Shown: positions 1-497 of the stretch, piece after piece
Layout: every line of letters starts with the position of its first letter
How positions within the stretch are numbered: position 1 is the first letter of the stretch
Source of the DNA: Escherichia coli
Lineage (GTDB): Bacteria > Pseudomonadota > Gammaproteobacteria > Enterobacterales > Enterobacteriaceae
Length of the DNA stretch: 497 nt
Reading direction: 5' to 3' (one strand)
Assembly (NCBI RefSeq): GCF_003334335.1
Contig: NZ_QOWQ01000184.1
Translations under genes and position numbers: made by a program
The notes under the pieces: generated by a model
Seen by the model: the letters and a program-made list of their open reading frames with translations, nothing else
Told to the model about the DNA's origin: nothing
Databases searched by the model: none

Positions 1-41
1 TCGGTATAACCGAGTAACTGGCGGGTCGTAAACAATCCCAT
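1..41 (-). CDS. E: Major capsid protein, lambda gpE family (5' end only; gene continues beyond window start)
   Basis: Minus-strand ATG at 41-39 followed by an open frame to the window edge, encoding MGLFTTRQLLGYT. This resembles the lambda gpE N-terminus MSMYTTAQLLAAN (M, TT, QLL shared). An AAGGA Shine-Dalgarno sits 8 nt upstream. The start lies 57 nt downstream of the D-like stop, close to the lambda D-E spacing as I remember it. Only 13 codons are visible, so the call rests on synteny plus a short N-terminal match. Confidence 0.75.
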   Translation of the reverse strand, partial: MGLFTTRQLLGYT

Positions 42-49
42 AAATCAGT

Positions 50-54
50 TCCTT
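50..54 (-). promoter_or_regulatory. Shine-Dalgarno (AAGGA) for the E-like major capsid gene
   Basis: Minus-strand sequence AAAGGA-ACTGATTT-ATG, an 8-nt spacer to the start at 41. Confidence 0.6.
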
Positions 55-69
55 TCATTCAGAAATCAG

Positions 70-91
70 TCAGGCCAACGCGGTGGCCTGA
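70..91 (-). other. Intergenic GC-rich stem-loop between the D-like and E-like genes (possible mRNA stability or attenuator hairpin)
   Basis: Perfect inverted repeat: on the + strand tcaggcca (70-77) and tggcctga (84-91) flank a 6-nt loop acgcgg (78-83). On the mRNA (minus) strand this is UCAGGCCA-CCGCGU-UGGCCUGA, an 8-bp stem with six G/C pairs, starting 8 nt after the D stop codon. It is followed by CUGAUUUCUGA, not a clean U-tract. Confidence 0.55.
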
Positions 92-98
92 TAACGTG

Positions 99-446
99 TT
101 ACGGCAGCGCCGCGTGACTCAGGGCTGTGCCGACAAAGGCGTTGGCCTTTTTGTGTTCATCCACACTTTCAGGCCAGCGGATTGCCTCCGTCGCAAAGGT
201 CCCCGACTTGTAATACGTCAGCACCGTCTCTGTGCCTTCAAGCGGCAGTACCAGTATGCCAGCCGCACTACCGGCTTTCTGTCCGTCCCAGACCACCAGT
301 TTCCCGCTGGCTTCATCCAGCATCAGGGGCGTCAGTGCCGGTGTTGCCTGAGAAATCCCGCTGCTGCCTGTGGCGGTATGAGCCGGATCATTACCGGCAA
401 AAATACGTACTTCTGCACGTTGTTCAGTGATGGTTTTCGTTACCAT
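99..446 (-). CDS. D: Head decoration protein, lambda gpD family (complete, 115 aa)
   Basis: Minus-strand ORF from the six-frame track: ATG at 446-444, TAA stop at 101-99. The product aligns by eye with lambda gpD as I recall it, including NDPAHTAT, TPLMLD, KLVxWDG, GIL, YKSGTF, WPE and AFxGTA motifs; roughly half of aligned positions are identical. Length (115 aa against 110 in lambda) and position immediately upstream of a gpE-like start fit the lambda gene order. GAGG Shine-Dalgarno lies 10 nt upstream of the ATG. Confidence 0.9.
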   Translation of the reverse strand: MVTKTITEQRAEVRIFAGNDPAHTATGSSGISQATPALTPLMLDEASGKLVVWDGQKAGSAAGILVLPLEGTETVLTYYKSGTFATEAIRWPESVDEHKKANAFVGTALSHAALP

Positions 447-497
447 ATTGTAAAAACCTCATATTGATGGTCAGCACTGACTTCATGGCATGGCCAT
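440..497 (-). CDS. Probable 3' end of the upstream head gene (position of lambda C/Nu3 protease/scaffold); partial, frame uncertain
   Basis: On the minus strand two frames are open from the window edge into the D start region. One ends with TAA at 442-440, overlapping the D ATG as ATGGTAA; the other ends at a TGA about 20 nt inside D. The third frame is closed by TGA stops at 485-483, 476-474 and 461-459. Lambda gene order predicts a scaffold/protease gene ending just before D. About 19 codons are visible and the correct frame cannot be chosen from the sequence alone; the coordinates given are for the frame ending at 440. Confidence 0.25.
   Translation of the reverse strand, partial: WPCHEVSADHQYEVFTIW
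457..460 (-). promoter_or_regulatory. Shine-Dalgarno (GAGG) for the D-like gene
   Basis: Minus-strand sequence GAGG-TTTTTACAAT-ATG, a 10-nt spacer to the start at 446. The site sits inside or at the very end of the upstream ORF. Confidence 0.55.

Follow-up and report, generated by a model that had tools for sequence, protein, structure and literature searches.

The head decoration locus

The DNA analysed here is a 497-nt stretch from Escherichia coli, hereafter the window, which carries one complete gene on its minus strand between the ends of two others. The complete gene is a head decoration gene of the SHP type located at positions 99..446 (minus strand), and it comprises 115 codons followed by TAA according to the ORF listing and the translation of the window. 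Its ATG lies at 446..444 and its stop codon at 101..99, and it is the only long minus-strand ORF in the window. The full product is MVTKTITEQRAEVRIFAGNDPAHTATGSSGISQATPALTPLMLDEASGKLVVWDGQKAGSAAGILVLPLEGTETVLTYYKSGTFATEAIRWPESVDEHKKANAFVGTALSHAALP, which begins with MVTKTITEQRAEVRIFAG and ends with LSHAALP. The original prediction had placed a decoration gene at 99-446; both these coordinates and the residues quoted with them are exact, and the strand, which was left unstated, is the minus strand. An identical gene is annotated as 'head decoration protein' (WP_000256795.1) in an E. coli O104:H4 record.

The ribosome-binding site of the decoration gene was read from the sequence as ATGAGG at 457..462 (minus strand), with GAGG at 460..457, 10 nt 5' of the ATG; the phage 21 record M81255 marks a putative RBS for shp at the same site. 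Alignments delimit two further features of the product. The first is an N-terminal arm, encoded by codons 1-18 at 393..446 (minus strand), for which a capsid-binding role is predicted on the basis of lambda cryo-EM (PMC5701804). The second is the C-terminal HAALP, encoded by codons 111-115 at 102..116 (minus strand).

Upstream of the decoration gene, positions 483..497 (minus strand) hold the 3' end of a protease/scaffold gene, equivalent to lambda C/Nu3 and to phage 21 genes 5/6, with its stop codon TGA at 485..483. In Escherichia phage PhiR5_1 the protease/scaffold CDS ends at L001 6015, which corresponds to window position 483, and in RefSeq E. coli annotation its product is called 'S49 family peptidase'. 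Downstream, a spacer of 57 nt separates the decoration TAA from the 5' end of the major capsid gene (the equivalent of phage 21 gene 7 and of lambda E), which occupies 1..41 (minus strand), has its ATG at 41..39 and begins MGLFTTRQLLGYT. The PhiR5_1 capsid CDS starts at L001 6457, corresponding to window position 41. The RBS of the capsid gene, AAGGA, was read from the sequence at 50..54 (minus strand), and the phage 21 record annotates AGGA at the equivalent site. In the window, the decoration ORF, its RBS and the ends of the two neighbouring genes are all intact.

Family and subfamily assignment

When the product was searched against PDB chains, the best matches covered residues 1-115 and were the structures of phage 21 SHP (1TD3/1TD4, E 1.8e-67; 1TD0, E 9.6e-67), followed by the lambda gpD entries 1C5E, 1VD0 and 7VII with E ~1e-29. 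The protein also matches Pfam PF02924 (HDPD, Bacteriophage lambda head decoration protein D) with E 1.4e-23, query residues 5-110 aligning with model positions 1-114 of 116, as well as the PHROG 49 'head decoration' family (phrog_49) with E 1.1e-29. Judged from these matches, the homology of ORF 99..446 is far beyond chance, and the membership in the gpD family of decoration proteins that had been proposed for it is borne out by the similarity search, by PF02924 and by PHROG 49. A scan of the decoration protein against NCBIfam matched no family, a result that is uninformative and not evidence against membership, and a PADLOC scan gave no defence-system match.

An alignment of nine lambda-, N15- and SHP-type proteins presents 41 invariant columns. 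The family motifs DPAHTA, TPLMLD, WDG, YKSG.F and WP are among them, and all are present in the window protein. The gpD fold, which consists of a beta-tulip domain and a small alpha/beta subdomain, is assigned to the window protein through its 93% identity over 115 of 115 residues to the protein in the 1TD3/1TD0 crystals. The assignment rests on this identity to a crystal structure because the AlphaFold2 model built from a 9-sequence alignment is poor, with a mean pLDDT of 52, which is too weak for reading either the arm or the C-terminus. When this weak model was submitted to Foldseek, the ten best PDB matches were all SHP or gpD (TM 0.52-0.63); given that Foldseek also uses sequence, so that these matches are partly sequence-driven, little independent weight is placed on them.

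Phage 21 SHP (gpShp, 'stabilisation of head protein'; UniProt VSHP_BPP21; gene shp of M81255; structures 1TD0/1TD3/1TD4) is the closest known system. In a three-way alignment the window protein has the same length of 115 residues and is identical at 107 of them (93%) over the full length. There is no difference from phage 21 SHP in residues 1-32, with the whole arm among them, nor in residues 108-115, which contain HAALP. The two loci also share their flanking genes, the positions of the ribosome-binding sites and the intergenic hairpin, and the window DNA is 96.6% identical to that of phage 21.

The features that separate the SHP subfamily from lambda gpD proper place the window protein with SHP. 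It is 115 residues long, has an 18-residue arm ending in RIFAG directly before NDPAHTAT, and closes with SHAALP. The 15-residue arm with FTHxQPxGN and the C-terminal AISIV of lambda gpD proper are both absent from it. Its identity to the decoration proteins of lambda, ev243, 2E9, PhiR47_2 and N15 is 49-52%, whereas those proteins are 69-98% identical to one another. We therefore consider it nearly certain that the product of 99..446 on the minus strand is an allele of SHP and serves as head decoration (capsid-cementing) protein in a lambdoid phage or prophage resembling phage 21, and none of the data speak against this reading.

Comparison with lambda gpD and Gifsy-1

In comparison with lambda gpD (1C5E, 1VD0, 7VII), which belongs to the same Pfam family PF02924 and whose gene likewise lies between C/Nu3 and E, the window protein presents 51% identity overall and 58% (55/95, BLASTP) in the core; the common fold follows from the homology of SHP and gpD. 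The two cores share DPAHTAT, TPLMLD, WDG, YKSGTF and WP, and a one-residue deletion relative to lambda gpD falls near residue 95. The arm has 18 residues in the window protein and 15 in lambda gpD, and lacks the FTHxQPxGN motif of lambda and N15. It is the most diverged part of the decoration protein between the clades, with 3/15 identities against 53/94 elsewhere. The C-terminus is three residues longer than that of lambda gpD (SHAALP as opposed to S---IV). The two proteins also differ in their state in solution, where SHP is trimeric and gpD monomeric (PMC7602432).

The divergent arm and the longer C-terminus had been presented in the original prediction as peculiarities of this protein. They are real when lambda gpD is the reference, but both are standard features of SHP from phage 21, which was missed at that stage. 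By its sequence, the window protein is of the known SHP type and not a new gpD variant. The broader statement that the gene marks a lambdoid phage distinct from lambda, and not a new function, holds.

A third protein places these features in a wider frame. The Salmonella prophage Gifsy-1 encodes a 115-aa decoration protein (STM2604.Gifsy1; L012 599-946) that is 69% identical to the window protein and has the SHP-type architecture. Its arm, MSFTTTIEKRADNRIFAG, has 10 of 18 residues in common with the window arm and keeps the motif E.RA..RIFAGNDPAHTAT (E.RA..RIFAG), and its C-terminal SHAALP matches the window protein exactly. The capsid protein linked to this decoration gene is of the gp7 type and 85.6% identical. 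Gifsy-1 differs in its host genus, Salmonella, and in the sequence of its intergenic hairpin. Compared at the sequence level, it is a more distant member of the SHP clade, and since it retains both the arm motif and SHAALP, these two features define an SHP subfamily spanning Escherichia and Salmonella prophages.

Predicted role on the capsid

The lambda gpD trimer sits over the three-fold positions of the capsid; its N-terminal ~14 residues are disordered in the crystal and form a beta-strand on the capsid (PMC5701804; bioRxiv 10.1101/216911). Two E-loop strands from one gpE, the N-arm of an adjacent gpE and this added strand together make up a four-stranded sheet, which staples the subunits (PMC5701804; bioRxiv 10.1101/216911). 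The earlier statement that the N-terminal arm contacts the shell is thus correct for lambda gpD (PMC5701804; bioRxiv 10.1101/216911). SHP has the same fold as gpD, with ~11 N-terminal residues disordered in the crystal (bioRxiv 10.1101/216911), and has been reported as trimeric on capsids as well as in solution (PMC7602432). Binding of trimers at three-fold sites and stabilisation of the DNA-filled head are known for gpD and reported for SHP (PMC5701804; PMC7602432).

From this published work on SHP and gpD we infer trimerisation, the binding site and the stabilising role of the window protein, and given its 93% identity to SHP it would be expected to work like SHP on a shell of the phage 21 type. 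By homology to SHP and gpD, it would be made from the late operon along with the products of the protease/scaffold and major capsid genes, and would form trimers with the gpD-type beta-tulip plus alpha/beta fold. The stable trimer in solution is likely retained. The arm (residues ~1-18) would settle on the shell, where its beta-strand would extend a sheet to which one major capsid subunit contributes its E-loop and another its N-arm; the added strand would staple capsomers so that they withstand the pressure exerted by the packaged genome. This path is extrapolated from that of the lambda arm, as no capsid-bound SHP structure on a phage 21-type shell was found.

At the PhiR5_1 locus, whose DNA is identical, the encoded major capsid protein has 96% identity to phage 21 gp7 and 61% to lambda gpE. 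Within the whole phage collection, an SHP-type decoration gene is present in 20 records, and these are exactly the 20 whose capsid protein is at least 90% identical to the one at this locus; no SHP-with-gpE or gpD-with-gp7 hybrid was seen. In a comparison of nine phages, the decoration proteins divide into an SHP clade with 93-99% identity within it and a lambda/N15 clade with 69-98%, at 48-54% between the two; the capsid proteins split alike, with 95-99% and 89-99% within the clades and 59-62% between them. Among the four E. coli phages of the SHP clade that were compared, decoration residues 1-32 and the first 95 capsid residues are invariant, and by analogy with descriptions of lambda these 95 residues would include the N-arm and the E-loop. 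The divergence of the capsid protein from gpE is fairly even along the protein and is not concentrated at the N-terminus. A lambda hybrid in which shp replaces D is described as viable but Mg2+-dependent (Wendt & Feiss 2004, as cited in PMC7602432).

It had been proposed that divergence in the arm reflects co-adaptation to a different gpE-like shell. Arm/shell co-adaptation is plausible, and the shared set of 20 records, a capsid protein with 61% identity to gpE and the published lambda shp hybrid all fit it, yet it is unproven: the decoration and capsid genes are only 57 nt apart, and simple linkage explains the co-occurrence of SHP-type and gp7-type genes equally well.

Occurrence and genomic context

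Over all 497 nt, the window has 100% identity to a phage that grows on E. coli C, Escherichia phage PhiR5_1 (PV340545.1), and a further 19 phage records, phage 21 among them, are 94.8-98.2% identical to it. Matches of at least 90% identity exist in 1866 of 5426 RefSeq complete E. coli genomes, about a third. These copies are chromosomal in 2906 of 2914 places, with up to five copies per genome, and many of the prophage copies are 100% identical, including those in O104:H4 and STEC strains. In the E. coli copies, the gene is annotated as 'head decoration protein' between 'S49 family peptidase' and 'major capsid protein'. PhiR5_1 and the O104:H4 prophage both have the canonical late module of lambda-like phages, in the order Nu1/A terminase, W, portal, protease/scaffold, decoration, major capsid, FI, FII, then tail Z, U, V, G, T, H onward. 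The decoration gene thus takes the place that is typical of its family, with the prohead protease/scaffold gene on one side and an HK97-fold major capsid gene on the other.

The exact DNA of the window, the protein fold, the family, and the arm and tail of the subfamily are thus already known, being public and annotated. The gene serves as a marker that assigns the window to the head module of a lambdoid phage or prophage resembling phage 21 (SHP/gp7-type), and it has little discovery value, having already been well studied.

The prevalence of chromosomal copies, with several in some genomes, raises the possibility that the gene is a relic in a defective (cryptic) prophage, intact in sequence and no longer used for making particles. 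In line with this, several early-region genes are frameshifted or partial in the O104:H4 prophage with the identical copy. Nevertheless, the window presents no damage to the ORF, to its RBS or to either flanking gene end, the same 497 nt are found in PhiR5_1, which has E. coli C as propagation host and a complete head-tail module, and dN/dS is below 0.5 among the alleles. A cryptic prophage is hence considered unlikely, and it would change the view of the host element's condition while leaving the identity of the encoded product as it is. A decoration gene of a phage 21-like phage or prophage is the reading of the locus in either case.

Separately, the comparison of PhiR5_1 (L001 3001-8072) with phage 21 (L002 1-5072) presents a strongly patchy density of mismatches. 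The portal gene diverges by ~1%, the 3' end of the scaffold gene by 12-14% and shp by ~4%; along the capsid gene the value climbs from 2% to ~10%, and FI is essentially unalignable. The diverged 3' end of the scaffold gene is the 'Tri box' repeat region of the phage 21 record. Synonymous divergence is 0.08 in shp and 0.30 in the capsid gene. Such patchiness implies recombination breakpoints inside the head module, which is ordinary lambdoid mosaicism.

A 42-nt perfect match in Aeromonas phage AP1 (MT713136.1, a 254-kb jumbo-phage record) was also considered as a possible biological link and rejected, being judged an assembly artefact in the AP1 record. The last ~9 kb of that record contain fragments of E. 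coli lambdoid prophage that are 96-98% identical (L010 4501-4745, 5317-5436 and 8111-8193) and lie in unannotated or tRNA-containing sequence. One of them comprises 245 nt of the gp7-type capsid gene, starting 1 nt before its ATG. These fragments are most likely contamination or the product of a chimeric assembly.

Allelic variation among SHP proteins

The sequence of SHP is part of record M81255, which covers the phage 21 head operon, and its crystal structures 1TD0/1TD3/1TD4 date from 2004. The primary paper on them is that of Forrer et al. 2004 in J Mol Biol. Eight conservative substitutions distinguish the window protein from phage 21 SHP: S33Q, P34A, T47S, V62A, A75V, H90R, A105V and S107T. 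Over residues 1-32, four synonymous changes and zero amino-acid changes separate the two genes. Among SHP alleles dN/dS is 0.11-0.49, indicating purifying selection.

The upper end of that range comes from the comparison of PhiR5_1 with phage 21, for which shp has a dN/dS of 0.49, based on ~16 differences (~9.5 nonsynonymous, ~6.5 synonymous), and the adjacent capsid gene one of 0.06. Taken alone, this difference could be read as a sign that the eight substitutions mark a functionally distinct decoration protein, e.g., one with altered trimer stability or shell specificity, as opposed to neutral allelic variation. The counts behind it are tiny, however, and all changes are conservative, with none in the arm or in the invariant family motifs. 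In addition, intermediate alleles are known (4A7, 94%; PhiR12_5, 98%), and the four SHP-type phages compared do not differ from one another in the first 95 residues of the capsid protein. A distinct function is thus very improbable, and the value of 0.49 is in keeping with weaker constraint on a small surface protein and does not point to a new function.

The possibility that the real gene is the plus-strand ORF 96..467 (123 aa, GTG start), with the minus-strand ORF as its by-product, is negligible: the plus-strand ORF is slightly longer, but neither it nor an 82-aa plus-strand ORF has a PHROG match, its product is Arg/Cys-rich as expected for antisense reading of a coding region, the homology of the minus-strand product is overwhelming, all annotated records call the minus-strand gene, and the 123-aa ORF was accordingly rejected as a mirror ORF, or antisense shadow.

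The SHP allele described here has a possible use in engineering. In PDB 8W3P, chain F ('prefusion-stabilized RSV F protein UFCR3-D(1TD0)'), the C-terminal 102 residues align with residues 11-112 of the window protein, and the alignment presents the same substitutions as the comparison with SHP. The SHP structure 1TD0 is therefore in use as an engineered fusion module for RSV F, and the present allele, which differs naturally at eight positions, offers work on such modules a variant that already exists.

Intergenic stem-loop

A scan for terminator-like elements and RNA folding identified a stem-loop at 70..91 (minus strand), between the decoration and capsid genes, which reads TCAGGCCA-CCGCGT-TGGCCTGA and is followed by CTGATTTCTG. 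The hairpin is real as an inverted repeat, and the region as a whole is not unusually stable: RNA folding of window positions 30-110 yielded z = -1.13 against shuffles. A scan of the window against Rfam at a permissive E-value matched no known RNA family, the only match being a 10-bit chance match to a vertebrate lncRNA model.

Modules of the phage 21, lambda/N15 and Gifsy-1 types all have a GC-rich stem-loop at the same place, a few to ~30 nt 3' of the decoration stop codon and before the major capsid gene, with sequences that are unrelated between the lineages (lambda, L003 1781-1835; N15, L004 1857-1881; Gifsy-1, L012 947-1000). Among the SHP-type phages one base of the loop varies and nothing else does. 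In lambda, ev243, 2E9, PhiR47_2 and N15 a run of T residues comes after the stem-loop, which in the N15 record carries the annotation of a putative rho-independent terminator; the hairpin in the window is less terminator-like.

This kept position with differing sequence is a mildly interesting aside to a coding gene without novelty. The stem-loop is a tentative candidate for a selected RNA element, e.g., a leaky terminator or an mRNA-stabilising or processing hairpin, which we regard as possible and somewhat doubtful. If it is one, it might tune the relative output of the flanking genes in the late transcript.
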